DNA of 54,597 bases, counting the filler, from Jimgerdemannia flammicorona (Eukaryota): the NCBI GenBank assembly GCA_003990765.1. It is 3 parts of 3 records of this genome, joined end to end, with 100 filler letters (N's around TTAATTAATTAA, not from the genome) between each part and the next. Parts side by side here need not be neighbours in the genome. Positions count along the whole stretch, not along the records: positions 1 to 18,134 come from RBNJ01002293.1; positions 18,235 to 36,368 come from RBNJ01002294.1; positions 36,469 to 54,597 come from RBNJ01002295.1. One strand, written 5' to 3'. Below the pieces are notes generated by a model, which worked only from the letters and a program-made list of their open reading frames with translations, had not been told where the DNA came from and ran no database searches. Positions 1 through 54,597 of this stretch are shown here, piece after piece. A program made the position numbers and the translations under genes. Every line of letters starts with the position of its first letter. Position 1 is the stretch's first letter.

Positions 1-3000
1 GGGTAGCTATATGGTAGAGTCAGGTGGGCATTCTGGTTAGAAAGAGTAAGGAAAATATTAGAGACATTGAATATTGGAGAGACAGGATGATGTGAAGAGT
101 GTAGAGGTAACCAGGCTAGAGTTCCTTGATTGTTGGATTGTATTATTGTCCAGTAGAGAGGAAAGAGTACTTAGAGTGAATAAGAGAACTAAGAGATATA
201 GGTATGATAGTGACAGAGAGAATTGACTGTCTAGGAGATAACTTTAACATAATAAGAGATAAGTAGTTAGACAGTACTGATAGAGGAAGGGGGATGTTTG
301 GTAGGAGTAAAAAGATGGAAGACTGAGATGAGATTGAGAGGCTGGGCTTACTAGTAGATACTGGGTATCTTGGATGGAGAGATCACAGAGTTTATACTCA
401 CTAGATAGTAGGGCTGAGTTTAAGAATTAACTAGATCTTAACTGCTGAGTGCTGGAGAGCAGATATCTGAAGTTCTCTAGAGATAATTTGGTATCTATGG
501 TCCAATCACTAGAGCTTGCTGAGCTGTGAAAGGTTCAGAGGAAGTGGAGAGGAGCCTGGACATTAGTATCTAAATGCTACATTGCTGGAGAAATCCTCTT
601 TGTAAGATACATGGATAGTAGACATTAGCTCTAGAATCTTGAGCTAGAGGGCACAGAGACTGGAGATTAGAGATCATTGATAGTATTTGAAATCAGATAT
701 CCAGTGGTTCTGGAGAGAGGTAGGGAGGAGGAGGAGTGCTTAGAGGAAAAGTCATTTAAGGTGAGCTTTTCAGAGATTGGAAAAGCTATTGAAGAAGTAG
801 GCAGAACTACTAGATAATAGAGAGGAGGGGAATTAGAGAGTTTAGCAGATCTAGCTAGAAGTGGAGAAACTAAAGAGTCTGCTGAGATAGAAAGAAGAAT
901 TATAGGTGAAGTATATAGTGGTCTGACTGAGGTAACAGGGCTTGGAGCAGAGAAAGAGGTCTACAAAGTTTTTATCAAGACTACTTAGGCAAAGAGAATG
1001 AGACAGTAGTGGAAAGGATTATTGGATGATATAGAAGAGATAGTAGACAGAACTCCTAAGATCTTGAGCCAGTTGAGATCTCAATAAAGATAATTGTAGA
1101 GTAAGAAGGAGGGGGGGAGGATATACTAAACATTTAATGGTATCTGGTAGATTGGTATCTAGACCTAGCAGAGAGCTTAGATAACCTTAGAGTACCTGTC
1201 TAAAGAGAGAAGATCTGTAAGGTATTGATGATAATGAGTCTTAGAACAGCTCCAGGAGAGGATGGTTTACCTTAGGATTTCTGAAAGAGGATGGTGGAGG
1301 TGGGGGTAGCTTTGGAGGAGATGATATGAATGTATGAATTATTGGCTCAGAGATCTGGATTAGGGGGCAGTACTTGGGTCTTATAGCTCTGTTGTATAAG
1401 AATAAGAGAAGAAGAGAAAATTAGAAGAACTAGAGGTTGATCATACTTCTAGATATGGATTGTAAGTTAGTTACAAAGATTTTGATGGCTAGATTGTAAA
1501 AAGTGACTCAGAAGATATTGGGGGCAGAGTAGAGAAGCTTCATTAGAGGTTATTTAATAAGAGATAGGATAGTATGGGTCTATAGTATTATTGAAGAAAT
1601 CTGTGCTACTGGAGTCAATGGTTAGCTAGTATTTCTGGACCAAGAGAAGACCTATAACAGGGTCCAGTGAGTGTGGCTGGAGAGGGTGCTGAAGTATATA
1701 GAGATCCTCTAAGGGTTCAGACAATCTTTAATCAGTCTATTGAAGAGGAGTCAGATGGCTATTATGGTGATTGAGCATAGGAGAGAGTCTTTTCCTCTAG
1801 GCAGAGGAGTGCTGCAGGGGGACCTACTATTGCTGATCCTTTATTCCCTCTCTCTGAAGTCTTTGTTGAATAGAATTAGATATAGAGTAAGAGGGTTGAA
1901 CATTCTGGAGATAAACTAGAAGGTAGAGACCTTGTGGATGATATAGTGGTAAGGCTGAGCTCTATAAAGGATGTGGCAGTATTGAAGAATATAGTGAAAT
2001 AGTATGAGGAGTGCTCAGGTACTAAGCTTAACTAGTATAAATATGAGACTTTGGTATTAGGTGAAGAAATAATAGAAGGAGATATGATTGGAATAGTTGT
2101 TCTGGTAAGAGAGGTAGTTTAGTATCTAGAGATCTACTTCTTGGTATATGATTCTCTATTATCTCAGAAATAATGAGAGTAGTAGCTGATTAAATGGGAT
2201 AGTACTCTTCTGGAGTAAGATAGCTAACATATCTCTTTGACTAAAAGGGTGATGATATTGAATGTATATTAGCTGTCAAAGTTGTGGTATCTGGAGTATC
2301 ACCTAGACTTCCTGGTATAAGTAGTTAAGAGACTATTGAAGATTGCCAGAATATAGATTTTGACAGAATGGTAGAGTCAGATTGGATGAGAGATAATGAT
2401 ATTGTTAGTATACTGAGGAGAGCTAGATCTGGTGGACTTTATCAATTATCTACACTATTTGAGAATATAGTGGCTAAAGTGAGCTAATAAGTTGAGGGGT
2501 CAAGAGGAAGTGTCTCTTATATAGAGAGTATGAGAGGTATGATTCTCTCCTTATAGTATATCTGGTGACTTGCTCTCTCTAGTAGTACTGGAGAAGAGCC
2601 AGAAGTATACTATAAGAGATTCTGGTGGAGAGTGGTTGATAGTGCTCAACAAATTGGTCTCCAGTAGTAGAGGAATAAGGGGAAGAAGAACTGGGAACCC
2701 TGGATGTAGAGATGGAACTATCTTCTATTGAGAGATATATCAGTGAATAATTTCAGTTTAGAGAATAGTATAGAATATCTATAAGAATATGGAAGAGATT
2801 TGTGGTCTGAGATCTGACAGAGGGTAGGAATTGGTAAAGAGTAGAACTAGAATGACATTTAGTCTTATAACAAGCAGGTAGCAAGATAAATTTCTCCTAA
2901 GTTCTGGATAGTATAGTAGAGGTTCTTATAGTACAATGTGATATTAAACTATAGATTAGAATATTTAGTAAAAGAAGTACCCTGGAGTATGAGAAGTACT

Positions 3001-3582
3001 TTAATATTGGGCAGAAGGGTAGAGTGATACAGATACTAGAGTATTAGTTGAGAAAATATAAGGTTATGGGAGACTTTTGGAAGACTATCAAGAATTAGAT
3101 AGTATCTGAGCAGATAGTAAGTAGAAGGTGGGGTAATCTCTGAAGGAGACTAGTGAGAGAGGTTGAAGATGAGTGGTTAACTATTAGGTAAGTTCTGGCT
3201 ATTTGGATTAAATTTGCTAGATATTAGCTATATATATTTGAGGATAGTCAGTAGTTGGCACTTGAAGTATAAGTTATAAAGTAGAAATAGTTATTGTTAA
3301 ACCTTTTGAATAGTTGATAGCAGAGGTGGGGACCTGGAGGGGGGCTCTGTAAGAGGCTTGTAGAGAAGATTTATAAACAGAGTAAAGAGAGAATTATAAT
3401 TATAGTAGAGATGATAAATTTCTAGAGAGATGAGAAGAGAGAGTAGGGGAGACTTCTTGTGAGATTTAATTAGAGATACATTTGTATATCTATATTAGTA
3501 TAATATAGATTAGAAGGTAATAAAGTAAAAGTCTAAATAACTATAAAAAAAATAAAATAAAAAAAATAAAATAAAAATAAAA
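1..3582 (+). mobile_element. Degenerate L1/Tx1-type LINE (ORF2 endonuclease-RT-3' end), 5' part outside the window
   Basis: Colinear with the younger LINE at 48557-53028 (relics of GDFN, FLDQEK, QGDPL and RYLG motifs). Riddled with stops. Ends AATAAAGTAAAAGTCTAAATAACTATA followed by an A-rich tail (3545-3582). Confidence 0.9.
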
Positions 3583-4755
3583 TAGAAGATATTTAGCTCT
3601 TTATTCATTCTTTAGTAAATACTATTGAGTTAGTTCTTTAGAGTCTGCTTAATTTTATCTATATAGTAAGTGATTCACAATTAGACCTTCTGAGCTATTA
3701 GTATTATAGTATTATTATTTTAGATATAAGTCATAGCTGTGAATATACATAGCTCTTGCTGGTCCTTAGAGACTGAATAATATTAAAGCTACTTGTTATT
3801 ATACTGATAGGATCCTTATAGTAGTATATTGTTTAAAATTATCAAGAAAAGTAATAATTGATTTATTAGAAGTATATATATATCTATAGAATACTAGTAG
3901 TCTTATATTTATTTTGTCTGAATATTTTGATTTGATTTGAGTGTATGTTTAGATGATAGTAGTTGTTCATTGTTTAGCTTAAAAGTAAGAGATTTATCTT
4001 AAATTACTAGCCAATAGATACTAAGTTGTAATGTAAGATATATACTAGCCAAAGTATGACAGATTTCTTTTTCTTAAATACTTGATATTTTTTAACTTCT
4101 TGAAGTCCTTAAGTATAATAGTGGGTGAGTTTGAAGTATATTCATCTACAGACTTACTAGTTTCTTACCTCTTTACTTGAACTATTTCAATCTCAGATTT
4201 ATTTACTCTAGATACTAGAGATATATATTTATATAAGTTTATTAACTCTATAATAGCTAAGTTAAGACTTCTTTTTCTGTAAGTTATTTCATATAGTTAA
4301 GAGATCAGTATATCTGTAAAATCTGTAAAGCTATACTTTTCATATAATTATATAAATCATATAACTGAGAGATTGAATTCAGATACTATGATCAAATGTC
4401 TATTTTCTGATAATTATTCATAATTCAGATTAACCATCATAATATATAAATTAAAAAATTAAAAAATATATATATATAATATTAATATTTTAATAATAAT
4501 AAATATATATATATATCAAAGTTTATATAATTTAAAATAATATATAAACATTTAATGTAAGAAAAATATTAAATTTTAATCAATTATAAAATTATAAAGA
4601 AATTTGTAACTTAATTACAACTTATATAATATTTTTAATACCCTCAGTTTATTTTATCTATTATTTTACTGATTAAATATTGAAGCCAGTTATCTGTATT
4701 TTAATGACAAGTAGCATTAGTCTTAAAAACTATGTGAACATCTGTATTCAAGTTA

Positions 4756-4829: not shown

Positions 4830-5594
4830 ATTTTCGGAATTGAATTTGCAGCAATTTTATTCATTTGATTCAAATCGGAGAACTATGAAATCCAACAATT
4901 AGCTGCCGGAGCCGCGTCCCCAAGCAAGACACTCGAGTGCATTCGCATACAAAAATTTTCGGGGAGGAACAGGTTGAGATAGATCGACGACATTAGTTAT
5001 GGGCGAACATGGGGTTTGCACACGCGTCCGCTTAAAATTTAATATAAACCCTGCGGCCCATTACAAATATAATTTGGCGAAACCCGCCATTCATAAACGA
5101 AAATTGTCGACTACGACCACCATCACACATCCTCACACACCACGGCACCTCACCGATTTCGCCCTTGCTCCAGATGGCGTTGAGAGCAGTCAAGACCGGC
5201 ATACGAATTCGCGCGTTGGCCACAAAATTCGACGTTTGTGTGCACAAAATATTTGATAACAATAATAAAGAGGCGTGGGAACCGTACGTTTAATTGTTTT
5301 CCGGGCTTTTTCTGAATCGATTCGAACCGAACCAGATGAATCCGGTCGCGGATTCGCGTCAGATTTTCGGACAAAGAGTTTATTTTTGTGGGATGAGTTG
5401 CTCCAGAGAGGACAATGGGAAGAGGAAAGGCGGTGATTGGCGATAAGAAACAAATTAAATCATTTTCTGTTGTGAAAATAGGCGTGAATATGACAAAACG
5501 CGACCACAATACAATATACTATATGAAATGAGAACATCAGTTCTCACAAAAGGTTCCAGAAGTAAATATTTCAGCGTAATCGGAAGGTGAGTTA

Positions 5595-5626
<32 letters not shown>

Positions 5627-6600
5627 GAGAGGGAGTGTTGGGTATGATTCTTTACTAAAAATACGATACGCTATTGTCGGATTTTCTCACAGCAAATATT
5701 TTATTTAGATGCAGAATAAATTCAATAGATTACTTCTTAAATTGAACCATTGCAAAAGATCGATTCGATTAATCATTTTTCCTCCTGTTGATATTGGATA
5801 AAAAAATAAAATAAAAAAAAACCCCCGTCGTTTCTTGGTCAAAATAGAAGGCTCATCATTACGTGAGCGTAAAGAGCTGCTACTTTGTACTCACCACCAT
5901 TACAATGACACATCCGTCAGTAACTCCAATCTCCAATAGAGTGCGACTCTCGAGATTGGAATCGATATCTTCAAAATGATTTTCGCCGAGGTCACGTTTC
6001 AGTAAGAAGTTGAGTCCTTTGGGGTTAAACTGTGCATAGTTCACACGCCCGGAGTTTCAGTCCATGCCGATAATACATGACGAACGACACTAAGGCATTT
6101 TGATGACGAAATTTTACCTCCTCAAGCATGAAAAACAACTTGTCCAAGGTAAGTTCCTTCTTGATTTTGAATGACTCCTCCGGGTTTTTGACATCCAACG
6201 TTCTAATCGTGATCATGATTTCTTCTCCTTCCCCCCTACAGAGATTTTTCGAACGAACAATCAAAACGAGTTATACGTCCTCCAAGACATGAGATAAAAG
6301 CATAGCATTATACCCGCGACGGTCATCATCCATCCCGTTGTCCTGGGTGAAAGAAGATGGTTCGGTGGTTTTGGGTGGGGTCTTGGGGGGACGGTCACCA
6401 TCCATCCCTTTGTCCTGGGTGAAAGGAGATGGGTCGGAGGGCTTGGGGTGGGGGATCTTCTTGGATTCTTCGCTCATATTGTAGGAATGTGTGGTGTGGG
6501 TAAGTGAGTGCTAAGCCGGCAGGAGGTGAGTCGGAAACCTTGTGACTAACCGAATTGAATGGTGGCACAATTACAAACATCATGGGGTACTCCTGACAGC
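4830..6600. other. CpG-retaining unmutated island (single-copy/genic DNA)
   Basis: Frequent CG dinucleotides, whereas both flanks are virtually CG-free. Contains a spliced gene. Confidence 0.8.
5773..6477 (-). CDS. Spliced gene for a ~142-aa protein with a Pro-rich repeated N-terminus and a C-terminal SUMO/ubiquitin-like domain. Exons 6477-6314, 6235-6118, 6029-5895, 5784-5773.
   Basis: Three GT-AG introns (6313-6236 GTATAA..TAG; 6117-6030 GTAAAA..CAG; 5894-5785 GTGAGT..polyT..CAG) join in phase. Product ...IMITIRTLDVKNPEESFKIKKELTLDKLFFMLEEFNPKGLNFLLKR...SRTLLEIGVTDGCVIVMVEEK* has a beta-grasp pattern. If intron 3 is retained the protein ends VSTK* at 5880. Confidence 0.72.
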
Positions 6601-7059
6601 CTCATGTGATCAACTCTGGGGAGTCAAGAAAATCAAGAATTCAAGATAAAGAAATCCTACTAGATTAAGTATCTGCTATATTAAAAGGTTATAGTATAAT
6701 CTAAAATAAATTAATAAAAGAGAATAATAATATCATTATTAAGGATACCTATATCTGAGTATAATCTATTAATAAATTATGTATTACTTCAGTTATATAT
6801 TTTATTAATTTAAATATTAATTAATATTAAGTTCTAATTATATAATAATTTTTATATAGTAATTTTCTAGATACTAAACTATAATTTTAATAAATATTAG
6901 ACTTCTTTCTTAAATAAAAATTATAACTTATCTAAAACTATAAGTTAATCTAATAGTATTCTTTAATTAAAATTAAGATATCTGAACTTTTATATAAAAC
7001 TTCTTTATCTTAAGTTCTGAGTATATTTTTTAAATATTACTATAATATATTCTATTTAG

Positions 7060-7093
<34 letters not shown>

Positions 7094-9944
7094 TTTTCTT
7101 TTCTAATAATAATAAACTATTCTAGAATTATTACTGGAGTTTATAATTGAATTTTTAATAAAAATTTCAACTTAATAGTTATATATCTTATATAGTATAT
7201 TTAACTATAGCTATCTAATTTATATAAATACCTTCTGTACTGAGTATATTGAGAACTTAGCTTTGCTTTTTTCTCTTAAAAATAAAAAGTACTATTCTTA
7301 CTTAAAACTCTTAGATCTGACTTATTTATAATTCTAAGTCTGATCAACTTGAGATATATATATATACTAGCTGAGAGAAATTTGATAAACTTAACAATAA
7401 GACTATATAAGAAGTATTTAACATATTTATAGTACTCAATAAAGAAATTATTTATACAAATTAGCAGTTATATATTTCTATGAAAAATATATCTGAGAAT
7501 TTATCAAAGTAGTAAATAAATATTTTCTAAATCATCTTTTAGTTTTTCTGAATTATAAAGGATATTATACTAATCAAAGAAAATCTCACCTCTATAATTA
7601 AGTTCTCTATATATAGATAAAGAAAATTAAATACTAAAATTATAGATTATTAAATATAATAGAGTCTTAGCTATATTATTCTGACTCAGATAAATAATTA
7701 AATAAATATCTGAACCTAACATTGATAGCTCTAGTACTATTATTATATAATCACTATTAAGAACATCAAGTCTACTAAGAATTATTATAAAAGATTTAGC
7801 AGAAATCTCATCAAAATTATCAATCTATAGTCTAATTATTAAAGTTATCTATCTTAGCAATATTATAAAAGAAACAACTATATATTTTAATACTAGTAAT
7901 ATTATTAAAGTAAACATACTTGAAGTATAACTACAACTACTATTATATCATTTAAATATAAGAATAATTAAATAACTTCTATTAATGATAAGATAGCAGC
8001 TCTTACTAACTAAGTAATAATTCTCACCCAAGCTCTTTATCTTAATATTAAAGTAAAAAAACCAATAAAAGACCTTTGACTTTTACTATTTGAAGAAAAA
8101 GCAGACTAAGTAATAATATTTATTTGATAAATAAATACTAACTATTATATTAATAGATAAAATAACTAATAAAATCTAGACAATACTCTTAATAATAAAG
8201 AATACTATAAAATTAAAGATCTCTATATAACTACAGTCTTACAAGTTAAGAAGTTATTATATACTTCATAGATATAGCTACTTAATAGTGATATAATCTC
8301 TCAATATACATATCTCCTTATATGAGAAGACTATACTGAAATAAATACAAGTATTAGAGATAATACTCATTCTAACTATAAAGTTTATCTATCTACTATA
8401 GATCTAAAGGAACTTATTATTCAATAATTCTGCAGCTTTATTTATATTACTGAAGTCAAAACTAGCTCAAGAATCTTGACTAAAAATTCTCCTAAATACT
8501 ATAAAAGCTAAATACAACTAATATGACCAAATAGTGAATGAAATAAGAGTATTATATTTCTTTAATATTTTATTAGATTAGTTATTTAAAAAGATCTATA
8601 AGTAAAGATTCTATAACTATCTATACAAATAATGGTATTTTGAATAAACTGTTATTAGAGTCTATACTATTCTAATAGACTAAAGATTAAGAGATAACAG
8701 AGATAATATATAACAATTAAGAAGAAAAATGACATTAATTCAAAAAAAGTATAAACTATGAAGTGACTCTTAGAAAATACAAAAAAGTTACAAGAGATTA
8801 TTAAATAAGAAAATTATAAGAAGATATAGTTTTTATAATTTTAACAATACTATCTTCTTTTTTTTCTTAATACTAACTTTGCTTATACTCATATAATCTC
8901 AACTCTTAAATATATCTTTGCTCAATATCTAATTATATATTCTCTGATAGTAATAATATATATCTATATATAGTATAGTTTGAAATAAGAGTCTTATAGT
9001 AGAGTTGGCAAAAGATAGTATATAAGATATGAATTAAAATATAGATAATATAATAGATAAAGAACAGATATAAGAATCTATAAAGAAATTAAATATATAT
9101 AGATAAAGAAAAAAGAGAGCAATATAATTAAAAGTCATATAGTAGACTTTATATAAACTATATATATATATAAAGAATTAATTTGATAAATAAAAGTGAG
9201 TTACTATAAAGATAGTATATATTTATCTCTTTTAAAATAAAGTATATAATCTCTAATAGTTCTATTAGACTCTTGAGTAACTTACTAAAGTTCTGAGTAA
9301 TAAGATAGCTATTAATATCTTTAAAAGCTATTAAGTATAAAAAGTATTTGATAAGTTAATAATATATATATATTATATATAAACTAAACAGAAAATAGTA
9401 AAAAATATCTCTCTCTCAAAAAATATATATATTATCTCTAATAACTTTGATATAATAATACTTTTATATATATAACTTATCTATAATAATGTTTTAAGTA
9501 TTTATATTATATATATATAAATTGTCTTACTATAATCAGTATATCTATCTTGAGTAAGTACTTATATAGTATAAGAGTTATAGAGTTAGGAAATAGAATA
9601 GAGTTAAATAGAGTAGAAGTACTATATATAATTATATATAAATAGTAGATTATATATTAAGATATAATAATTATCTCTTCTAAATCTATCTAACTATAGA
9701 TTATATCTAAAGCTCTTATAAGGCTATAAGATATATATGTAAGTTTAAGATTAAATCCAAATTTGAAATAAATTTAAATCTAAGTCTACTCTGACTATTA
9801 AGATCAAGTCTGAGATTAATTTTAAACCTAAGTCTAAATCTGAGTCTATCTCAGCTACCCCAGCTACTTTAGTTGTTCTAGCTATTCTTACATATTATTA
9901 AGGTAAAGATTGAGATTAAATCTAAATCTGAGTTTAGGTCTAAG
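6600..9944. other. Extremely AT-rich hypermutated relic (unidentified repeat), continuing at 16378-17145
   Basis: Remaining C mostly in CT and remaining G mostly in AG. Degenerate hexamer (TCTRRR) and CCAGCTACT-like repeats occur on both sides of the MITE/LINE insertions. Confidence 0.5.
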
Positions 9945-16364: not shown

Positions 16365-17145
16365 AGATCTAAGTCTAAGTCTAAGTCTATATCAATTACT
16401 CTAGTCATCCTGACTATTATAGCTACTCTGGTCTTAGCTATTATAATTATTTAGCTTCAATTGCTTTCATCCTAATTACTTTAATAACTACTTTAGTTCT
16501 AGCTACTCTGGTTACTTTAGCTCTAACTACTCTAGTTATTCTAGTTCCAACTACTCTGGCTACTTCAGTTCTATCTACTATAACTATAATTATAAAAAAA
16601 CTAAGAGATTATTAATCAAGAACTAATTACTATAACTATAACTTATAAAATAATATATAAAATTTACTTCTATCTTTACTAATACTTTAACTCTTTATTA
16701 TCAAATATCTCATCAAAAAAGAGAAAATATAATAATACTTATATATTAAGCTACTATTATAAAAAGATATCAATATTATGAGAATAAAGAAAAAGTTGAT
16801 TATGAAAAATAAAAAAAATAAAAAGAATAAGTAGGCTAAAGAGAAGAAATATATAAAGTATAATCTTAATATAAAAAAGTTAATAAATAGAATATATATA
16901 AATAGATAAATATATAAATTTTAAAATTTAAGTAACTTTTTAAGTAATTTTATTATATTTATTAATTTAATAAAGAATTTAATAAACTGATAAAAAACTA
17001 ATAATATATAGAAAAATGATATACTATCTGAATAGATTTTTCTCATATATAATAGTCTAATTCTCATAATATGTAGTCTACTATAATAACTTAATAAAAT
17101 TATATTTAAATTTAATAAATTTTAGCTTAAATTTATTATATATAT

Positions 17146-18102: not shown

Positions 18103-18105
<3 letters not shown>
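17146..18105 (-). mobile_element. Partial LTR of the dUTPase-Gypsy family, interrupted by a poly(T) tail (18106-18134) and a gap
   Basis: Aligns with 29772+, 39530+ and 46674+, including the 3' part of the LTR ORF. Confidence 0.85.
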
Positions 18106-18134
<29 letters not shown>

Positions 18135-39529: not shown

Positions 39530-42500
39530 TGTTATATAGTGGGTACTGAGTCCTTCAAATATATCAGATTCTCTTCAAGATATATCTCTTAGACTAACTA
39601 CAAGTAGTTATAAGCAAGTTCTTATTGAAGTATCTTTCCAAGATCTTATAGTCCTCAAACTTCTTATCTTTAAACTATCTTATTATCTCTTAGATTACTT
39701 GTATGAAATTGAGTATAAGTGAACTAAGAAAACTGACTTTATTTAAAAGAAAATGAGAGGGGTATTTATACAAAATATAATTTAATGATTGCTAATATAT
39801 AAAGCTAAATATAAATTTTAATAACCAAATAAAATACTGAAATATAGAAAACTTCAGTTATAAGTACAAATTCAAGTGTCTGTATAATAGTTGTATAAGT
39901 TTAGGATATTGGTAGATTTCAGTTATATAAGAAAAGGATACTAGAAGATTTATATATTATAAGGAACTTAGAGCAGAATGTTCAGAACTCTGGAAGCTTC
40001 ACCTTTGTCACTATTATCAAGGTTAGAGATCAGAGACAGGATGTCTTTAAAGGAGATAAGATCAGCAAACATTTTGTCTATTTTACATATTTTATATATA
40101 TCACCAATTAGTGGGATGATATCATTACCGATGACATCATTATATTCAGCAATAGTAGAGAGAAGAGCAAGGAGATCTGGGGCTCTCTAATCTATAACAT
40201 TCTCTTCTACAAAATAAGAGACAAATATGGGGTCTTGGAGAGATCTAATCTGGATACTGGAACCTTGGAATACTGAGATCAATCCTTATAGGAATTGATC
40301 TAGATTGTTCTGGAGAATAAGATTCCAGAACTCTTCTATCTCATCACTATTGAGGGTGATAGTGGATTGGGCTTCTGTAGCCACCATGGTCTCTAGTATA
40401 TTTATATAGCAGACTGATAATTTCTTGAAGTCTGAGACTCTGGTATACTCTAAGTTGAAGATTGACCACAGTGTATATCTGAAGATCTGATGAATCTTCT
40501 TCACTATCCTTATTTCATATATATCTATAGAGGTGGTATCTTATATCTCTTGGAGACTGATCTGAGGAAATTTGCAGTAGAGGAGGTTTTCTATTTTATA
40601 TTCCTACTATATTCAAAGGTATTTAGTAGCAATAGTGATTCTTATTTCTATTTCATAATAGTAGAGGATAAAGTGATAAGGGTTACCAGTACTTGAGTTG
40701 AGACTAGAAGTTCTTCTGGTATAAGTCTTCATAGCTCTTCTGATGTCTTGGAACATTCTTTCTTAAACTGAGAGACCTTAGTAGTTTCTAGGCCTTAAGA
40801 TTTGACAGGCAGCAGGTATTTTGTTTATAGTGAGTCTTTGAACTATTTTGGAGTTTTGTGAGTCTTATTTGAATTGCTACTGCTATAGTTCCTTAGTTCT
40901 TCTTTTATATTCCTTGAGATATCTATTCTATAATCATAATGACTCATGATTGATTATTATTGCTCATCTTGTAGTCTGGATAAGTTATGCTATATGATCT
41001 TCTTATACTCCAATCTGGTGACTTGTAAGGAAAGGCTATCTTCTATGATGATATCACTATTCTGAGGTCACTATTATATCTTCCTTCTGAATAAGGATCT
41101 TCTCTTGAATATCCTTATTCATTGATTCAGTCTGAAAAATTTACTGATCCTATAACCTCTGACAGGGGGTCAAAAAGTGGTATTTATGGGCTAATATCTT
41201 TTTTATGTATTTTGGCATAATGGTGAAGGGTTGCTCTCTTTATATAGAATAAGGACCTGCTTGCTGGTCATAGGACATGCTGTTATAATTCATAGACTAG
41301 AATCTAGTAGGTGGTCATTATGTTTTACTTCTCTTGTATAAGTTCATGGTACTTCTTGAGTCTATTTCTATATACCATGGTAGGCAGTATGGTCTCTGAG
41401 AGTTTCCTAAGCTAGAAGATAGTTCCCTTGATATCTTGGACATAGAAGAATCCTTTCTATTTGGGCTCTAGTTTTCATAATCATGAGACTTCTATCATAT
41501 TTTAATATAGTAGAATCTTTTCTCTGATTTGAATGGATTCTAGAGTCTTGTGATTCTTTTCTATATTCTTTCTTATTAGTACTTATGACTTGATGATGTA
41601 ATCTTTTACCTTCTTTCTGATTTGATATAGTCTCTGGATTTCTGAGTCAATCCATCACCAGTTAGGTCTAGATTTGTAGCTGAGGTTCTATCAGAATCTT
41701 CTTCTCTGAAGAGCAGTTCTCTTGGAGTAAAGTGTGTACTCTGTGACTATATATCTCATAAGACAGAGAGGGTAGTTGGGAGGTAGTTATCCTAATTCTT
41801 ATATGTTTCTGAGATCTTGGCTAGGATGTTCTTAAGGGTCTTATTGATTCTTTCTGTCTGTCTATTTTCTTAAGAGTAATGTGCAGTAGTCTTGATATAC
41901 TAAATCTTATATTTCTGATATATTATCTTGTAGAATCTATTGACAAATTCTGTGCCATGATCTGTAGTAATTTGTCTTAGTGTCTTATAGCAGTAGATGA
42001 TTTCTTGATATAGAAAGTCAGCAATAGAGAGAGTATTGGCTTCTTATAATACTTCTGCTTCTATCTATTTAGTAAAGAGGTTTACAATAACTATGATATA
42101 GTTGTTTTCTGATAGAGTTACTGGTAGTGGTCTAATGATGTTCATTATGATGTGGTCAAAAGAGATAGGTTCAATTCTTAATGATCCAAGTGCCTGGTCT
42201 TACTGATCTTGTTTCTGTTTTTAGCACTTGTTATATCTTTTGACAAATTGGTACAGATCTTCTTTCATCTTTGGCCACTATATAGTTCTTCTTACCTTAT
42301 CATATGTATTGATTTCTCCTAGATATTCTTATACATATACTTCCTTCATTACTTAATACTTCTTATATTTAGATATTATAAGCTTTTCTCCTTTTCTGAG
42401 TATAGTGTTGTCTAGTTTAAATTGTTTCCAAGTCTAGTTAATAATAGTAATAGTCCAGAGTTTGAGGTGGTTGGGCATCTTTCACTGTCCAAAGGTAGCT

Positions 42501-45500
42501 GATTAATCTATAGTATAACTCCTTATTCATATTAAATAATCTTAGTAGGGGTGTTTTAGAGTATCTTTAAAAGTATATCAGTATTGGTGTTGGTTTTTTC
42601 TGAGCAGTGTTTGACAGTACAGTCATACTCTTATAGTCTGTAGATCTATCTGATATATATTCCTTTGGGTTCAGAGTATAGAATAGCCAGGTAAAAGCAG
42701 AGTAGTCTGTTTGAATAGTAAAGTATTTCCCAGCTAGGTAGTAGTAGAACTTGTCTACTGCCCAGACTACTGCTAAGTATTTAAGCTTATATAACTTGTA
42801 GTTCTGTTCTGCTCTACAGATATCTTGGCTTACATAGGAGATGACATATTCATGTCTATCTTTCTTCTGAGCTAGTACTGCTCCAAGTTCTATAGTACTT
42901 GTATCTATCTACAGAATGAACTCTAGGTTTCAATCTGGTCTTCTGAGGATGGGTGCTTAGATCAACCTGATCTTGAGTTCATTGAAGATTTCTTGATATT
43001 CCTTAGTCTATTTAAATTTGGTCTCCTTCTTCAGTAACTTGTAGATAGATACTGCAATGTTAGAGTATCTTTTGATAAATCTTCTATAGTAGAAGGCTAG
43101 TTCAAGGAAGGCATAGACTTCTATAGTTGTTCTGAGTCTTGGGTAGACTGCAATAGCCTCAATCTTCATAGAATCTATATAAATTCCAATCTAGTTGATA
43201 ATGTGCTTTAGATAGACAATTTCTTAAGCTGTAAACTTACACTTCTTGGGCTTGATGTAGAGGTCATGCTTCTTGAGCTTCTTGAGGGCTAGCTATATAT
43301 AGTTGATATATTTCTCTGTACAGTATTGCTGAAGATAATCATATCATCAATATAGATAAAGAGTTATTTTCCAATCTCATTGCTGAAGACTCTGTTCATC
43401 ATTCACTAAAAACTTGCTGGAGCATTGTATATTCCAAATAGTATTCATAGGTAGACATAGGTGATATCAGGTATAATAAAGACTAATTTCTTACTAGTAT
43501 CTTAAGTGAGACTGATCTGATGGAAGTCTGAGAATATATCCAAGATAGTGTAATATTTGGCTTTGCTTATAAGAGTGGTAAGGATTTCTTGAATATTCAG
43601 TAAGAGCTGTCTATCCTTCTTAGTGATTATATTGAGCTTTCTGTAATCAATACAGAGTCTTGGGGTAAACTCTCCAGGCTTGCTTCCTTTCTTTGGAGCA
43701 AGGACAATAGGTGAAGCCTAGGAACTAATAACTTATTTAATGATAATGACTTCTTCCATTTTCTTGAGTTCTGTTTGTAGCTATTCTCTGTAGGCAAGTG
43801 GTATAGATCTGATTTTCTGATAAATGGGCTTAGTATCACTGGTATCAACTTCATAGTAGTACTTGGGTTCTTGATTGTAGATGTCCCTAAAGTCTGTGGC
43901 AAGTACTCCTTCATTCTGATATAGGATCTTAAGAAGTTGTTCTTCTAGGGGAAAGTTTTCTCTAATGGTATATGTGTACTTATTCTGGTCCTTATCTATC
44001 TTGTACTCAAGTTCAGTAATCTTAGTAGCAGTATAAGCTTCTCTTCTAGTAGATCTAAAACCTTATTCTCCTCTTTTAATCTTAATGAGTTTGATGGCTT
44101 CAGTGATCTTAGACTTCTTGACTTTATAGATTAGCATCTGACTAATTCTGTCATGCTTCTTGACTTCAAATGGGGTGGTGGAGTTGTGATTTCTGACTAT
44201 AAGAAAGATCTCACCAGTGTAATCAGAGTTAATGACTCCTTCTTTAACTGAGATTTTGCTCTTAGCCAGACTGCTCCTAGTCTTGATAATTTTAGTATGG
44301 TTCTCTGATAACTTGACTCTAATTCTAGTACCAAGTAGAGTAGTAGTTTGTGATTCAAAAATAGTATCTTAGATACTAGTAAAGTCCATTCCTATGGCTT
44401 CTTTAGTCTTGTATTCTAGGATCTTGGCTTTAGGGTAAAACTTCTTGACCTTGAGAGTGATGTCTGGTTCTTGTTCTTCCTTATTATTACTATCAGCTTA
44501 AAGCTCTGGGAGCTGGTCATCTTCTTCAGCTTTTCTTTTTGCTTCAGCAACTTCTTGCTCATACCTTTGTTGATAGATTTTTCTGACTTCACTGATATAG
44601 AACTAGTAGTCATTGAGGTGTTCAGAGCAATATATCTTAGTACTATGGGGGTATCTTCCTTGAGGGATATAGTCATTAATGATTTTGTTGTACTATTGCT
44701 CATCTGTAAGCTTAATTGTCTTGCTCTTGTTCTTATATACTAAGTGCATAAAGACTTCTGTATCCTCTTCATCTTCTTTCTCTATATCTAGTAGTACTTC
44801 TTTGTGGATATTGATAAAGACTTATATCTTTCTTTCTCTATAGTTAATCTGCATCTTCTGGATATTGAGGTCAATGATAGCCTTGGTCTTGTAAAGCTAT
44901 TGGTTATCAATAAGGATATCATAATTAGTAGTACTTGTAATAATTACATCTACTGAGATAGTAGCTTCTCTAATCTTGATAGAGACTTCTCAGATCTTAC
45001 CTAGAGGGGTAACTCATATACTATCTGCTATAACATAGACTATTTTGGTAGATTCTTCAATATCCCAGCCTAGGTAGTTAATTGCCTTCTTGCTTATGAA
45101 GTATTTTCCAGCACTGATATTAATGATAGCATCAAAGATACAATCTTCAATCTGATATTGAGTATAGGCTGAGGTCTTGTACTAATCTTCAGATTCTTTG
45201 CCTAAGTCTTTTTGTTCATCTTTTTGTATATTGTAAGCTTCTATGATCTTATACTCTTGGTTCTTGATAGTAGTTATAAGTCTTACTCTCAACTGCTGTC
45301 TGAAGGCAGAGACTTCTACTAGTTGTCCCAAAGTAGCATTGACCTTCTATTTCTTGAGATCCTTGTAGATATCATACTGGTAGATCTTGATCTTGTATAG
45401 CTTTTGTTCTTTCTTGCTTTCACTTTCTTCTGAGACTAGAGTAGTATCTTTAATAATTTGGCAGACAGCTTCATCTAACTCTATGTTTTGATCAATCTCC

Positions 45501-48500
45501 TCAGGTTGGGTCTTACTTTGAATAGTGATAATTGAGGTCTTTTCTAGTCTTTCAACTGGCTTGCTGTTACTCTTCTTATTATAGAGCTTGGACCAGATTT
45601 TGGTAGGTTTAGTAATAAGATAAAATTCAGACTCCTTATAGTATTCTTCATCATCAGTATTACCAATCTCCTCAATGACTACTGTATTGGTTTACTCTCT
45701 AGTTCTGGTAGTATTACTTAGTTGAGCTCTGTACCTTGTTTCAGTTATACAACTCTTTGTATAGTGGCCTTCTTCTCTATATTTGAAGTATATAATAGTA
45801 TATTCCTCTGTAGTAGCTGCAAACTTCTGCACTAGTCTCCTGTTAGTACTTCATACTTCTCTAATAATATCACTAAGATATATAGTCATCTTGGCAAACT
45901 ACTAGGTGAGTTCCTTCACTGAGTCAGCTTTGGCCTTATGGGGGGTAGATAGGAATAGTTGTCTATTGATAGCTATAGTGAGTATGATATTGGTTAGCTT
46001 TAGTAACTCTATCTTGATGCTAGTTATTCTTTCTATTAAGTGTTTAGTAGGGTGTCTGGCAGTTCAATATCTCTATACAAAGACCACTTTCTGGTCAAGG
46101 ATCAGAGTAGCTGAGATAGATCAGATTGCTAGGGTGATTTTAGGGTAGACTTTTTTGAGTAAAGTTAAATCAGCTATTTATTTCTTAAGAGTATCATTAT
46201 AGCTAGCCAAGATAATCAGATGGCAGATTCAGATATAGAATGAGTTGAGATCTTCACTGAGTCTCTGGTAGATAGTATTGAGTTGATCTTTGAGAGCTTG
46301 CTTGATCTCTTTAGTATAGTATATAGTTCTGAGGAAGTTTTTTATATTGGCAAGTTTGGCTGTACCAGTATCAGCAATAGTAGTTATATTGAACTTATCT
46401 CTAATAGGTCCTCTGAGGCTGACTGATAGAAGGACCAATTGTACATCTATAGTAAGAGCTTATATAATAGCAAATTATTCAAAGTCTTCAATGAAGATCA
46501 GGATTGACTTTTTAGTAATAAATCTATAGAATGTGGAGAGATGCATTTCTATCTTATCTTGAATTCTTACAGGAGTAACTCTTGTAGTCAGGGTAGTTGT
46601 TGTAGTAGTTATTCATTTTTTTAGCTTGAAAGTGAGAGATTCATCTTGAATCACCAATCAATGAGCACTAAGTTGTTATGTAGTGAGTGCTGAGTCCTTC
46701 AAATATATCAGATTCTCTTCAAGATATATCTCTTAGACTAACCTCAAGTTTGTTATAAACAAGTTCTTATTAGAGTACCTTCTGAAGATCTTATAGTCCT
46801 CAAACTTCTTATCTTTAAACTATCTTGTTATCTCTTAGATTACTTGTATAGAATTGAGTATAAGTGAACTAAGAGAACTGACTTTATTTCAAAAAAAAAA
46901 TGAGAGAGGTATTTATATAAAATATAATTCAATAGTTGCTAAGATATAAAGCTAAATATAAATTTCAATAACTAAATAAAATACTGAAATACAGAAAACT
47001 TTAATTGTAAGTATAAATTCAAGTATCTATATAATAGTTATATAAGTTTAGGATACTGATAGATTTCAGTTATATAAGAAAAGAATACCAGAAGATTTAA
47101 GTATTATAAGAAACTTAGAGCAGAATGTTCAGAACTCTGGAGGCTTCATCTTCATCACTATTATTAAGGTTAGAGATCAGGAATAGGATATCTTTAAAGA
47201 AGATAAAATTAGTGAATATTTTGTCCATTTTGCATATTTTGTACATGTTACTGATTAGCAAGATGATATCATCACTGATGATATCATTATATTTAACAGT
47301 AGTAGAGAGGAGAGCAAGGAGATTCAGAACTCTCTAATCTATAACATTCTTTTCTACAAAATAAAGGACAAATGTGGGGTCTTGGAGAGGTCTAACCTAA
47401 ATACTGAGACCTTGGAATACTGAGATCAATCTTTATAGAAATTGATCTAGATTGTCCTAAAGGATAGAATTTCAGAACTCTTCTATCTCATCACTATTGA
47501 GAGTGATAGTAGATTGAGCTTCTGTAATCACTATGGCTAGTACTCCCAATGAATTGAATTAAATCAAATTAGACCCAAATTTGATTTGATTCGAAAACTT
47601 CAAATCAAATTGAGGTCCAATTCAATTTGAATCAATTTGAATTGAGGTCTAATTTGATTTGAGGTCCAATTTGAACTCTATTTTTAGAAATTAAATAACT
47701 TGACAAATATATATCCAAATTCAATGATCTTTAGCTTATTAGATTCCTCTTATATAGGGGAATCTAACAAGCTAAAGATTATTGAATTTGGACATATATT
47801 TGTTGAGTTATTATATTTCTAAAAATAGTTTTTAAATCAGACTCTTAATTAGATTCGAAATTTATTCAATTTGAACTCAATTAGAATTAAAAAATTCCCA
47901 ATTCAATTTGATTTGAATGACCCTCAATTTGATTTGATTTAAATTGATTCAATTTATTTGGAAGCACTAACTATGGCCTCTAGTACATTTGTGTGGCAGA
48001 CTGATAATTCCTTGAAGTCTGAAACTCTAATATACTCTAAGTTGGAAATTAATCATAGTATATGTCTGAAGATTTGATGAATCTTCTTTGCTGTTCTTAT
48101 TTCATATGTATCTATAGGAGTAGTATCTTATATTTCTTAGAGACTGGTCTGAGAGAATTCTCAGTAGAGGAGGTTTTCTATTTCATATTCCTACCATATC
48201 TAGAGGTATTTAATAGTAATAGTAATTCTTGTTTCCATTTCACAGTAATAGAGGATAAAGTAATAAGAGTCACTAGTACCCAGATTGAGGCTAGGAGTCT
48301 TTCTGATATAGGTTCTCATAGCTCTTCTGATGTCTTAGAATATTCTTTTTTAGACTGAGAGACCTTAGTGATTTCTGGACCTTGAGATTTGGCAAGCAGT
48401 AGACATTTTGTTTATAGTAAGTCTTTGAACTATTTTGGAGTTTTGTAAGTCTTGTTTGAATTGCTGCTACTGTAGTTTCTTAGTTCTTCTTTTATATTCC

Positions 48501-48556
48501 TTGAGATGTCTATCTTGTGATCATAATAACTCATAGTTGATTATCATTACTTATCT
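39530..48556 (-). mobile_element. Ty3/Gypsy copy B, near complete and more mutated. 3' LTR 39530-41078; 5' LTR 46674-48556, interrupted by a MITE and cut by a LINE.
   Basis: Colinear with copy A throughout. PPT relic at 41079-41088. PBS-like TAGTGCTCATTGATTGG (TGG>TAG) at ~46654-46670, 3 nt from the LTR. Confidence 0.93.
47538..47969. mobile_element. hAT-type MITE family 2 with central hairpin
   Basis: 8-bp TSD ACTATGGC at 47530-47537 and 47970-47977. TIRs TAGTACTCCCAATGAATTGAAT / ATTCAATTTATTTGGAAGCACTA. The host LTR resumes exactly after the TSD. Confidence 0.92.
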
Positions 48557-53028: not shown

Positions 53029-54597
53029 TGTAACGTGCCGGCTCAATGGAGGCAAATTACAAGGTTGGGGGTTGATGTAGTTTGGCTTGAGCCCCCAGTT
53101 ACTTTGTTAAAAGCAACAAAATGTTCTTGGTGTTTAGCGGTATAATAGTCAAAGCTGGATATCTGCGAGTGGTTTCCTTATTGGGACTGTTCTCTGGGTG
53201 TAGCAGTGGTTTGTATGTCTTTTCCTTCTTGGGTCAACTGGGAATGGCACAATTTCTGTGTAGCGTGACGATCTCCTTGTGCGTGACGGTCTGGCAATTT
53301 AGCGGTTCTCCTTCTTGGGTGACGGTCTCTGATTTCTGCGTGACGATCTCTTGTGTAGCACGGCGGGTTCCTTATGCGGGGCATTCTGATAATTTGGCGG
53401 ATAACTCGATTTGGTGCGGATTCTCCAAAAGCGGCGGGCTTCACTGGGAATTGTATGGCGTGGATTCTTCCGGGCTCACTGGGAATAATGAGGAACTCGG
53501 ATGGCTCTTCTGGGAATGCGGATAACTCGAAAGTGGCGGACGACGCGGATTCTTCCTGAATCGGCGGACTTCTTGAAAGGTGGTGGACTGTGCAAGAGTA
53601 GTTGGAGGTTCTGGTCTCTGGGGTCTCTGTCTTTCTTGTTGGTCCAACAGATGACACTGATAGCAGTAGTCTCGGGGAGAGTGGAAGACCATTTGGTGTG
53701 GACATCTTCCTAGCCGGAAGGCTTTCTCTTGGTGGGTTTCTTTCTTGGGGATAATGGTGATGGTACTGGGTCCTTCCTCTGTATTCCAGGGGTCATTATC
53801 TTCAGGTGGTGTCCAGCGGGGGTCATCCCAGGGGATGAGTTCGGGGACTTCTTCTTCATCAGATATTTCTTGTTCAGGAACTTCTTGGTCAGAAGCTTCT
53901 TCTTCCTCAGATGATTCTTGACCCCAAATTGCTTGTACTTCTGCAGCTTTGGTCACAGGTGTTTCTGGAATATGTCCGCATTTCTTCTTCTTTCTTCTGC
54001 ATTCTGGGCAAGCTGCACCAGGTGATTTCCTTTTTCCCATAATCTTGGAGGAGTGCTCAGGACACTTGTGTCTCTTGAGGTATGTGGGGCATCCTTTGGC
54101 TTCTCCTGTGATGGCTCCAATGGTAATAGGGATAGTGTTCTTGGCCCACACATTGTCTTCTGGTCTGTCATCCACCAGGTTAATTCGTGGATTGAGTCTT
54201 GGATCATTTCCATCCTTGGATTCTTCTTCTTCTTCTGTAGTAGATTCCTCACTGCTGGCATACTCTTCTTGAATGGTGACCTTCTTCTTCTTCTTCGATT
54301 GCTCATAGCTGGTCACCTTGACTCTATACTTCTTGCCTCGATAGTCAAACTTGAGTACTTGTTGGCCAATATCCACAACTGCATTCATTTCCTTCATCCA
54401 GTTGGTGCCAAGAATCATGTCATAGGTGACAGCTTCGGTGACAACAGCTTTGGGGATGGAGAACTGAATATGTCCAAGGGAGATGGTAATATTTCATACT
54501 TCTCCAAGAGGTTGAGTTCGGGCTCCATCTGCTACTATGATGCTGAGGTTGGATGGTCCATCAATGGGCCATTGGAGGGTGTCCAGGAATCGTTTGG
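53029..54597 (-). mobile_element. LTR-type element with aspartic protease and Cys/His-rich acidic ORF but no RT/IN before the terminus
   Basis: Begins TGTAAC exactly where the LINE breaks off. The minus frame gives IIVADGARTQPLGEV*...YDMILGTNW (retropepsin C-half), similar to the copy A protease region. Confidence 0.72.

Follow-up and report, generated by a model that had tools for sequence, protein, structure and literature searches.

Overall organization of the window

The window analysed here, a stretch of 54,597 nucleotides, consists of three chunks of approximately 18.1 kb each; artificial linkers occupy positions 18135..18234 (44 N, TTAATTAATTAA, 44 N) and 36369..36468 between them. It contains the open reading frame of VMA5 (V-ATPase subunit C; 25180..26448, plus strand), which is 99% identical to Jimgerdemannia flammicorona, the next best match being 62%. 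The window thus derives from that species or a very close relative, and the non-Dikarya host supposed in the initial annotation is confirmed. J. flammicorona is an early-diverging mycorrhizal fungus of the Endogonales (Mucoromycotina); its 231 Mb genome is reported to be mostly LTR and LINE DNA.

The LINE copies comprise L1 (1..3600, plus strand; GC 0.37, no CpG), L2 (10540..16400, minus strand; one CpG), whose poly-A tail appears as poly-T on the plus strand at approximately 10540–10594, and L3 (18815..23520, minus strand; three CpG), all of which are decayed, together with L4 (48557..53028, plus strand), which carries an endonuclease domain and has a GC content of 0.53 and a CpG O/E of 0.20. 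The truncated L3 adjoins Y1 (18235..18814, minus strand), a 5'-truncated LINE fragment with an RVT_1 domain and a CpG O/E of 0.46. Y1 had been placed among the young inserts; it is indeed younger, but position 18235 is the start of a chunk and not an insertion edge.

Two copies of a Gypsy element lie on the minus strand. Copy A (29765..36368) encodes, in order, gag (zf-CCHC), dUTPase, RT, RNase H and integrase domains, with an LTR from 29765 to approximately 31145; CpG is depleted (O/E 0.08) and the remaining contexts are little altered. It is cut by the chunk end, position 36368 being the end of the chunk and not of the element. Copy B (39523..48556) is heavily mutated (GC 0.335 and a single CpG in 39523–46093) and has both LTRs (39523–40969 and 46673–48556), the second of which contains a 427 bp MITE-like insertion (47543..47969). 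A partial LTR of the same family, S, lies at 17137..18111, and a relic at 3598..4036 corresponds to Gypsy B 46251–46683 by a purine/pyrimidine-collapsed match only (raw score 89, compared with a decoy maximum of 57). A young LTR element (53029..54597, minus strand) cuts the 3' end of L4 and has a CpG O/E of 0.98 in 53029–53570.

The window also contains end-stage DNA, which lies at 6700..9700 (GC 0.18, no CpG, 75% of C in CpT) and 36910..39500 (GC 0.20, no CpG, 76% of C in CpT), and which flanks VMA5 at 23600..25100 upstream (GC 0.23, no CpG) and 26600..29760 downstream (no CpG). For 6700..9700 and 36910..39500, neither a six-frame Pfam search nor a collapsed-alphabet comparison within the window gave a match. 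In 10.7 kb of DNA of 18–27% GC, CpT accounts for 1619 of the 2328 cytosines and CpG for none. The share of cytosines followed by T rises from 0.25 in the gene, through 0.31–0.38 in Gypsy A and L4 and 0.44–0.54 in Gypsy B and L1–L3, to 0.75–0.77 in end-stage DNA, and the age series originally proposed for the inserts is borne out as far as composition is concerned.

Sparing of VMA5

VMA5 is spared, with sharp edges. The ORF holds 80 CpG (O/E 1.02) between CpG-free flanks; every CpG of 23000–30000 falls within 25263–26525, and CpG-free DNA begins within approximately 80 bp of the ORF. This decayed DNA, of repeat or once-unique origin, extends to the edges of the gene. A CpG-rich unit (4835..6551) is also spared; 91 CpG were counted in the surrounding span 4800–6700, and the unit has no ORF longer than 122 amino acids and no Pfam match.

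An untargeted neutral spectrum biased towards C>T, with selection alone keeping genes rich in GC and CpG and with young transposons not yet at equilibrium, would account for the fact that the non-genic DNA of the window bears the signature throughout, recent insertions excepted, to within approximately 80 bp of the VMA5 ORF. It would also agree with the lack of any Pfam or collapsed-alphabet sign of transposon origin in the end-stage DNA. However, protein-level selection is not expected to keep a CpG O/E of 1.02 across an ORF, the unit at 4835..6551 retains its CpG with neither a longer ORF nor a Pfam match, and the non-CpG load of the repeat copies does not keep pace with the loss of CpG in them. 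We consider this explanation improbable.

Transition excess among repeat copies

C:G>T:A transitions dominate the differences between repeat copies. The two LTRs of Gypsy B, which were identical at insertion, differ by 193 transitions and seven transversions over 1441 aligned positions, so that mutation occurred in place, after integration. Between Gypsy A (29765–36366) and Gypsy B (39523–46093), 1185 of 6479 aligned positions differ (1060 transitions and 125 transversions; from A to B, 476 G>A, 351 C>T, 133 A>G and 100 T>C), although the two copies represent different subfamilies and change in the master lineages is mixed with in-place decay in this comparison. With that qualification the C>T/G>A excess on both strands that was first noticed between these copies stands, and the examples then given (GCATGGAC/GCATAGAC, TTCTGTAG/TTCTATAG and GTAGGC/GTAGAC; 33360–33440 versus 43090–43170) are real. 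The LINEs, an independent family, give 502 transitions and 81 transversions between L1 and L3, and LTR S differs from the Gypsy B LTR B1 by 136 and 31, respectively. At non-CpG sites transitions outnumber transversions by 27:1. When the alphabet was collapsed to purines and pyrimidines, identity rose from 82.8% in plain letters to 98.6%, and for L1 and L3 from 74% to 95.9%.

The earliest stage of decay is confined to CpG, as seen in two comparisons. Y1 and L4 differ by 75 transitions and 46 transversions, with only CpG elevated (17/56), and in a palindromic element pair CpG sites hold five of the six transitions.

Sequence context and strand symmetry

In the Gypsy B lineage 75 of 140 CpG, 407 of 973 CpA, 208 of 737 CpC and 101 of 989 CpT sites are mutated (Fisher tests: CpA versus CpT, odds ratio 6.1, p = 2e-53; CpC versus CpT, odds ratio 3.6, p = 6e-21). 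The counts for CpA, CpC and CpT are 43/260, 31/142 and 24/444 in the Gypsy B LTR pair and 156/534, 181/728 and 90/738 in L1/L3. The order CpG > CpA ≥ CpC >> CpT, described in the initial annotation as CpG first, then CpA and CpC, with CpT spared, thus recurs in three comparisons; CpA (0.42) is the leading non-CpG context in A versus B, above CpC (0.28) and below CpG (0.54), and is no higher than CpC in the LTR pair. The rate in Gypsy is governed by the +1 base (G, 0.53; A, 0.41; C, 0.29; T, 0.10), the −1 base being of minor effect (0.22–0.33). Among CpA sites in Gypsy, CAC (0.50) and CAT (0.51) exceed CAG (0.30). TCA is mutated less often than VCA (odds ratio 0.45, p = 1.5e-7) and makes up 306 of the 541 remaining CpA, in keeping with the early remark that surviving cytosines are sometimes in TCA.

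The bias extends beyond CpG, with transitions far exceeding transversions. Near-total loss of CpG from transposons and its retention in genes are shared with the TpCpG hypermutation and 5mCpG decay of basidiomycetes (Pucciniomycotina), but in the Gypsy B lineage 716 of the 791 changes lie outside CpG and TCG (26/53) is mutated no more often than the other NCG trinucleotides (ACG, 12/23; CCG, 26/41; GCG, 11/23). CpG-confined 5mCpG decay with a TCG preference was rejected on these grounds.

The two strands are mutated at similar rates in Gypsy (309/1206 versus 413/1421) and in the LINEs (141/602 versus 361/1650). No same-strand runs were found along Gypsy (z = +1.2) and mutation density is even over the element, which together with the equal strand rates argues that the mutator acts on duplex DNA. 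The dominant 3'-neighbour rule points to an enzyme of the DNMT type.

Single-strand editing before integration, by an APOBEC/AID-like deaminase or through reverse-transcription errors, would explain why many C>T changes are common to both LTRs of Gypsy B; with LTR S as outgroup, 19 are unambiguous compared with three shared transversions, and some of the mutation in Gypsy B may predate its insertion. The dUTPase encoded by the Gypsy element would also fit. Against this, the 193 transitions between the LTRs arose after integration, neither strand is favoured and no runs occur, the rule is at +1 and not at −1, and the LINEs, which replicate differently, share the spectrum. We regard such an origin as highly improbable; as the source of the bulk of the changes, APOBEC/AID-like editing is largely refuted by the lack of strand asymmetry, of clustering and of a 5'-neighbour rule.

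Pace of decay and candidate mechanisms

The ratio of decay in Gypsy B to that in Gypsy A is 1.22 at CpG, 5.02 at CpA, 2.74 at CpC and 2.57 at CpT, and the interval for CpA overlaps that of no other context. Decay is not a single clock-like process, and more than one component is present. A repeat-targeted mutator and broad non-CG methylation of distinct specificity had been put forward at the outset, and these are the two mechanisms left standing.

The reading that we prefer, in which our belief and our doubt are about evenly balanced, is that silenced transposon DNA is methylated at CG and non-CG sites and is then deaminated. Methyltransferases of the DNMT1/DIM-2 superfamily would methylate transposon and heterochromatic DNA in CG plus non-CG contexts, and deamination of 5-methylcytosine, spontaneous or enzyme-assisted, would produce C>T changes in the two strands alike. 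The flank preference of the enzymes would underlie the order CpG > CpA ≥ CpC >> CpT and the partial protection of CpA by a 5' T. CG decay would strike all transposon lineages, nearly intact ones included, and non-CG decay would accumulate in place on silenced copies, the end point being DNA of 18–27% GC in which approximately 70% of the surviving cytosines are in CpT. From the sequence we infer methylation itself, the acting enzymes and chromatin state, rather than duplication, as the probable trigger.

Supplementary file 1 of PMC9963178 gives three DIM2-class proteins for J. flammicorona AD002, all of which carry both BAH and C5-methyltransferase domains. Transposon methylation in Phycomyces, a fungus with DIM2 as well as DNMT1, was measured at CG and CHH but not CHG sites (PMC11258239), and the higher mutation of CAC and CAT than of CAG reported here resembles that pattern. 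A precedent comes from Zymoseptoria tritici, where mitotic C>T mutation of transposons depends on Dim2 (PMC8016269). Other points count against the preferred reading. A published DNMT1 table has no J. flammicorona row where one would be expected, the assembly being approximately 70% BUSCO-complete, and the DIM-2 of Neurospora reportedly favours CpT (PMC8016269, PMC13297926), the context that is spared here. To yield the 27:1 ratio at non-CpG sites, non-CG methylation would have to be very dense or an enzyme would have to take an active part, and the unequal B/A ratios are explained no less well by episodic or copy-specific hits than by steady decay. The heavily mutated Gypsy B also directly adjoins the little-mutated L4, in which depletion is limited to CpG.

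Strict RIP, in which homology-recognized duplicates would be mutated in bursts by a DIM-2-class enzyme without RID, with spill-over into unique neighbours, is possible but doubtful; duplicate recognition would probably take place around the sexual cycle. Copy-specific, non-clock decay (B over A, 5.0-fold at CpA versus 1.2-fold at CpG) and the sharp contrast between the neighbours Gypsy B and L4 speak for it, as do AT-rich CpG-free DNA reaching the gene edges, a composite RIP index that exceeds 0 in 42 of the 104 windows of 1 kb and the three DIM2-class genes listed for the host. In Neurospora DIM-2 is able to mediate RIP by itself, by a pathway that preferentially mutates adjacent non-repetitive DNA (bioRxiv 10.1101/2021.04.05.438447), and the contributions to AT-rich C>T hypermutation in Trichoderma reesei are ranked dim2 > rid1 >> dimX (PMC11381340). 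Yet the most mutable context is CpG and not CpA, CpC and CpA are on a par in the LTR pair, and RID is reported as exclusive to Pezizomycotina (PMC9963178); a k-mer screen label of 'no_rip' for the J. flammicorona genome also weighs against strict RIP. Same-strand runs are absent too, although many rounds would erase them. A form proper to Endogonales, namely homology-triggered, RID-free RIP by expanded DIM-2-class enzymes that hits VCV and spares CT and TCA, seems to us unlikely but worth stating. If it were true, RIP-like mutational defence would predate Dikarya or have arisen twice, and its ancestral engine would be DIM-2 and not RID.

Comparison with known systems

The window shares with canonical RID-dependent RIP, as in Neurospora crassa and other Pezizomycotina, massive C:G>T:A mutation of repeats on both strands, CpA as a main target, accumulation of TpA, AT-rich relics beside intact genes and positive RIP indices. 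It differs in its Mucoromycotina host and in that mutability is highest at CpG, similar at CpC and CpA and lowest at CpT, whereas the order in Neurospora RIP is CpA >> CpT > CpG > CpC. In the DIM-2-dependent RIP of Neurospora and T. reesei and in the mitotic mutator of Z. tritici, a canonical DIM-2-class enzyme drives C>T mutation of transposon or AT-rich DNA with no need of RID, and in Neurospora DNA beside repeats is affected too; the present host has DIM2-class genes, but those systems are all in Ascomycota. The Dim2 mutator of Z. tritici places more than 98% of C>T at CA, with CG not showing high mutation rates (PMC8016269). Such near-exclusive specificity is not seen here, where CpA contributes 407 of 791 changes and CpG is hottest.

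Tuber melanosporum is likewise a transposon-rich mycorrhizal fungus (ectomycorrhizal in the case of Tuber), with a C>T bias in its transposons at CpG and then CpA (PMC4352252) and transposon methylation that prefers CpG (PMC4165359). Tuber is, however, an ascomycete with a RID-like gene, and PMC4352252 links signatures at CpA and CpT with RID/Masc1, naming CpT among the signatures and not as spared; its main text never uses the term 'CpC'. Zoophthora radicans (Entomophthorales), for which a composite-RIP-index signal and DNMT1-superfamily paralogues are described (PMC11105155), also presents a RIP-like signal outside Dikarya, but it belongs to another phylum and its signal is a composition index only, with major caveats given by the authors, whereas the present data are alignments of LTR and copy pairs, from which rates per context were derived.

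Implications

RIP-like mutational defence is regarded as a Dikarya trait and in practice as an ascomycete one. A kingdom-wide screen from 2025 concluded that ascomycetes alone show such signatures (PMC12543289), an earlier paper reports their absence from Mucoromycotina (PMC8647823), and our literature search found no published report of such a signature in this lineage. In this one window, transposons bear a RIP-like footprint of strong C>T hypermutation that depends on context, in an Endogonales fungus which, by published accounts, lacks RID and has three DIM-2-class genes. Were it genome-wide, the origin of such defence, or of its DIM-2 arm, would lie deeper in the fungal tree, and J. flammicorona would offer a natural system for separating DIM-2-driven mutation from RID. 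It would also bear on the organization of the 231 Mb LTR/LINE-rich genome and would warn that k-mer and repeat-annotation screens overlook decayed repeats (98.6% collapsed versus 82.8% plain identity). We note that the table of the 2025 k-mer screen in which J. flammicorona is labelled 'no_rip' gives the identical k-mer pattern and the same label for Leptosphaeria maculans, a species in which CpA accounts for 90% of transposon C>T sites (PMC4352252).

Transition excess between repeat copies

Alignment of the two Ty3/Gypsy copies, A (29765–36368, minus strand) and B (39523–48556, minus strand), gives 1185 differences in 6479 aligned bases, comprising 1060 transitions and 125 transversions. Read from A to B, 827 changes are C>T or G>A, compared with 233 in the reverse direction, and the base changes offered as examples in the initial annotation are present between these copies. 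When both sequences are collapsed to a purine/pyrimidine alphabet (C = T, G = A) their identity is 98.6%, compared with 82.8% for full letters. The cleanest test of the transition excess is provided by the two LTRs of B (39523–40969 and 46673–48556), which differ by 193 transitions and only 7 transversions in 1441 bases (collapsed identity 99.1–99.8%). Since these LTRs were identical at integration, the mutations arose in the chromosome after insertion.

The unrelated LINE family gave the same outcome, with 502 transitions and 81 transversions between copies L1 (1–3600) and L3 (18815–23520), which are 95.9% identical when collapsed. The LINE comparison was restricted to this pair because the five-way alignment is too diverged (copies 56–74% identical, with many transversions). 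Other Gypsy-family copies, at 90–95% likeness, are found in contigs of two coded public runs, X1 and X2, for which the listed transition:transversion changes are 71:5 and 136:18, respectively. The C>T hypermutation signal is confirmed and lies far beyond chance.

Sequence context and strands

For the A/B alignment, C was taken as ancestral wherever the copies show C against T. On this basis, and with the proviso that A–B differences mix change in the master lineage with decay in place, the B lineage has lost 75 of 140 CpG, 407 of 973 CpA, 208 of 737 CpC and 101 of 989 CpT sites. The proviso arises because 36 private LTR transversions fall on A against 3 on the B stem, which indicates that A belongs to another subfamily; it bears on the A/B context counts and not on the B LTR-pair comparison. 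Loss at CpA and at CpC exceeds that at CpT (odds ratio 6.1, p 2e-53 and odds ratio 3.6, p 6e-21, respectively; Fisher), and CpA also exceeds CpC (odds ratio 1.7, p 1e-6).

A large effect is seen at the +1 base only. The −1 base spans 0.22 (T) to 0.33 (C), and rates are flat at positions ±2 and ±3. Rates inside CpA are 0.50 for CAC, 0.51 for CAT, 0.36 for CAA and 0.30 for CAG, and TCA is mutated less often (81 of 281) than ACA, CCA and GCA taken together (326 of 692; odds ratio 0.45, p 1.5e-7). No TCG preference was found among the CpG contexts of the B lineage.

The initial annotation had proposed that CpG is hit first, then CpA and CpC, with CpT spared. The order among the non-CpG contexts is repeated in the outgroup-polarised LTR pair of B (CpA 43/260, CpC 31/142, CpT 24/444), in L1/L3 (CpA 156/534, CpC 181/728, CpT 90/738) and in the comparison of S, a partial Gypsy-family LTR (17137–18111), with an LTR of B (CpA 55/204, CpC 42/154, CpT 21/230). 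The claim that C>T occurs on both strands also holds, as strand rates are alike in the copy comparisons. We found no same-strand runs of the kind expected from processive single-strand action; the 791 mutations form 391 runs (z = +1.2), so that the strands interleave as by chance.

More than one component of decay

Decay since the A/B split, corrected for sites mutated in both copies, is 1.47 in A and 1.79 in B at CpG, for a B/A ratio of 1.22 (95% interval 1.03–1.50). The corresponding values are 0.118 and 0.593 at CpA (ratio 5.02, 4.03–6.50), 0.135 and 0.372 at CpC (2.74, 2.18–3.57) and 0.044 and 0.112 at CpT (2.57, 1.83–3.88). A single process whose relative rates are fixed would give one ratio, and the differing ratios therefore indicate at least two components. 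The first is CpG decay, which is common to A and B and is the sole component in young pairs. The second is non-CpG decay, the strength of which is copy-specific and which carries extra CpA weight in B.

Two young pairs were compared. The younger LINE fragment Y1 (18235–18814) differs from LINE copy L4 (48557–53028) by 75 transitions and 46 transversions, with CpG changed at 17 of 56 sites. A self-inverted element some 450 bp long is present twice (9945–10460 and 36469–36909), each copy matching the other in both orientations; the two differ by 6 transitions, 5 of them at CpG, and 4 transversions. This element has a CpG observed/expected (O/E) ratio of 1.2–1.3 and is not hypermutated despite the end-stage DNA (AT-rich and CpG-free) alongside it.

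Many C>T changes are common to both LTRs of B. With S as outgroup, 19 shared C>T changes are unambiguous (CpA 12, CpC 6, CpG 1, CpT 0), against 3 shared transversions, and both LTRs are mutated at 44 of 135 CpA sites that are intact in A, where 29 would be expected under independence. This sharing reflects either a template of B that carried mutations beforehand or gene conversion between the LTRs.

Decay that is not clock-like and the sharp contrast between the heavily mutated B and the adjacent L4 make a serious alternative of bursts triggered by duplication, which would be true RIP (repeat-targeted C>T hypermutation) of the DIM-2 type and which we consider less likely than not. A target-site duplication of Gypsy B, sought for the time order of B and L4, was not readable. 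The CpG-only early stage and the absence of runs lean towards heterochromatin-wide methylation with ongoing deamination, a reading in which we infer the methylation and to which we give an even chance.

Host gene, composition series and spared DNA

At 18135–18234 and 36369–36468 the window is interrupted by blocks of 100 bases, each made up of 44 N, TTAATTAATTAA and 44 N, which divide it into pieces of 18,134, 18,134 and 18,129 bases. It is therefore a composite in which adjacency across either block is artificial, and the end of Gypsy A at 36368 and the start of the LINE fragment at 18235 are sampling cuts. The sole clear host gene is VMA5, an ORF of 422 codons for V-ATPase subunit C (25180–26448; Pfam E 9e-141), which is also covered by contigs of the two public runs. 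The best hit of the ORF, at 99% identity, is a partial protein from Jimgerdemannia flammicorona, followed by Bifiguratus at 62% and then by other Mucoromycota. This series identifies the host as an Endogonales fungus; its place outside Dikarya had been supposed in the initial annotation. Outside VMA5 and a CpG-rich unit at 4835–6551 the window consists of transposon DNA and AT-rich DNA, and a tRNA scan of it found none.

The C-then-T share, counted over both strands, is 0.25 in VMA5, 0.31 in L4, 0.38 in A, 0.44–0.54 in B and LINE copies L1, L2 (10540–16400) and L3, and 0.60–0.77 in the AT-rich stretches. A and L4 are depleted in CpG (O/E 0.08 and 0.20) with few other losses. The series bears out, for composition, the age series described in the initial annotation, and the nesting order agrees with it: the 3′ end of L4 is cut by a young, CpG-rich LTR element that starts at 53029, and the 5′-truncated Y1 adjoins the truncated L3. 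The pooled AT-rich stretches (10.7 kb) retain 2328 cytosines, of which 1619 are CpT, 541 CpA, 168 CpC and 0 CpG; 306 of the CpA are TCA, matching the earlier description of leftover C as mostly CT and sometimes TCA.

In the end-stage DNA (6700–9700 and 36910–39500), 12 six-frame read-throughs contained 0 Pfam families, and no collapsed-alphabet match within the window rose above the decoy maximum, so that we can only infer a transposon origin for it. The stretch 3598–4036 is the only AT-rich one linked to the Gypsy family by the collapsed comparison.

VMA5 has a CpG O/E of 1.02. All CpG of 23000–30000 fall in 25263–26525, and CpG-free DNA of 20–27% GC starts about 80 bp off each end of the ORF. 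The unit at 4835–6551 (91 CpG within 4800–6700) has no ORF longer than 122 aa and no Pfam match in six frames, and includes, at 6318–6453, a direct repeat of 64 bp with 87.5% identity. It may represent a gene (orphan or rich in introns) or else a non-coding unit exempt from the decay. As both this unit and VMA5 retain CpG, the process is regionally targeted and not general to DNA without protein constraint.

Possible mechanism

The duplex target, the hits on both strands, the 3′-neighbour rule, the somewhat higher rate at CHH than at CHG and the sharp gene borders fit the action of a DNMT1/DIM-2-superfamily cytosine methyltransferase, with deamination as the next step. Neither a single-strand deaminase nor reverse-transcription error fits these features. 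The proposal in the initial annotation, of either a repeat-targeted mutator or broad non-CG methylation, is supported.

With the enzymes drawn from the literature, a DNMT-linked process is in our view quite likely. Navarro-Mendoza et al. (2023, PMC9963178) describe RID-1 as exclusive to Pezizomycotina and report DIM-2-like homologues from both Endogonales and Glomeromycota. The supplementary table of that paper gives three DIM2-class proteins with BAH and C5-methyltransferase domains for J. flammicorona AD002 and, for Endogone sp., a DNMT1 that carries a replication-foci domain; parts 229, 231 and 232 of the table have no J. flammicorona DNMT1 row at the expected place. In Phycomyces (Mucoromycotina), where DIM2 and DNMT1 are both present, transposon methylation falls at CG and CHH, not CHG (PMC11258239). 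Dim2 of Zymoseptoria drives mitotic C>T in transposons (PMC8016269), DIM-2 of Neurospora alone suffices for RIP, preferentially beside repeats (bioRxiv 10.1101/2021.04.05.438447), and in Trichoderma it is dim2 that contributes most to the C>T hypermutation of AT-rich regions at meiosis (PMC11381340).

Comparison with known systems

The closest published spectrum that we found is that of Tuber melanosporum, in which CpG is predominant and CpA secondary (PMC4352252). T. melanosporum is, however, an ascomycete with a RID-like gene, whereas the present host lies outside Dikarya. The same paper links the signatures at CpA and CpT with RID/Masc1, and its main text nowhere uses the term CpC. In the present DNA, CpC is targeted on a par with CpA and a 5′ T partly protects CpA. 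CpT is spared, whereas DIM-2 of Neurospora is reported to prefer it (PMC8016269, PMC13297926).

Badet and Croll (2025, PMC12543289) concluded that such signatures are unique to ascomycetes. In their Table S14, J. flammicorona is labelled 'no_rip', the counts of enriched k-mers being 23 for non-coding DNA, 0 for repeats and 0 for the two together, and Endogone sp. has 13/0/0. Leptosphaeria maculans (45/0/0) is equally labelled 'no_rip' there, although CpA makes up 90% of its transposon C>T sites, which was called 'suggestive' of a high RIP rate (PMC4352252); the label is thus weak evidence against a RIP-like process in J. flammicorona. Dallaire et al. (2021, PMC8647823), citing Venice et al. 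(2020), described Mucoromycotina as without RIP signatures. For Zoophthora radicans, which lies outside Dikarya, a composite-index signal has been described, with caveats given by its authors (PMC11105155). Full-text search found no report for Endogonales, the host genome paper (10.1111/nph.15613) and some supplements lying outside its scope.

Other features of the repeats

Gypsy A encodes a gag zinc knuckle, dUTPase, reverse transcriptase, RNase H and integrase, and the dUTPase domain lies in pol directly before the reverse transcriptase (33676–34740, minus strand; E 3e-27). A metagenome scan with the dUTPase–reverse transcriptase ORF gave 146 pattern matches, of which 0 were confirmed. Gypsy B has both LTRs, the second of which carries a MITE-like insert of 427 bp (47543–47969) with inverted ends and ACTATGGC flanking both sides; its 2 CpG and C-then-T share of 0.32 indicate that it is younger than its LTR.

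A U6atac-like sequence (15907–16047, plus strand; Rfam RF00619, scoring 42.7 bits where the gathering score is 33) sits in a segment of L2, about 135 bp long, that is absent at the homologous place in L3. It has A at several conserved G positions and is probably a decayed snRNA retro-insert. The LINE family, comprising L1–L4 and Y1, encodes an endonuclease and a reverse transcriptase. On its sense strand the GC skew is some +0.45 to +0.5 (1–3600, 10540–16400, 18815–23520 and 48557–53028, the last being the least decayed copy); since per-site C>T rates are equal between the strands (0.234 and 0.219), the skew belongs to the family itself and is no product of decay.
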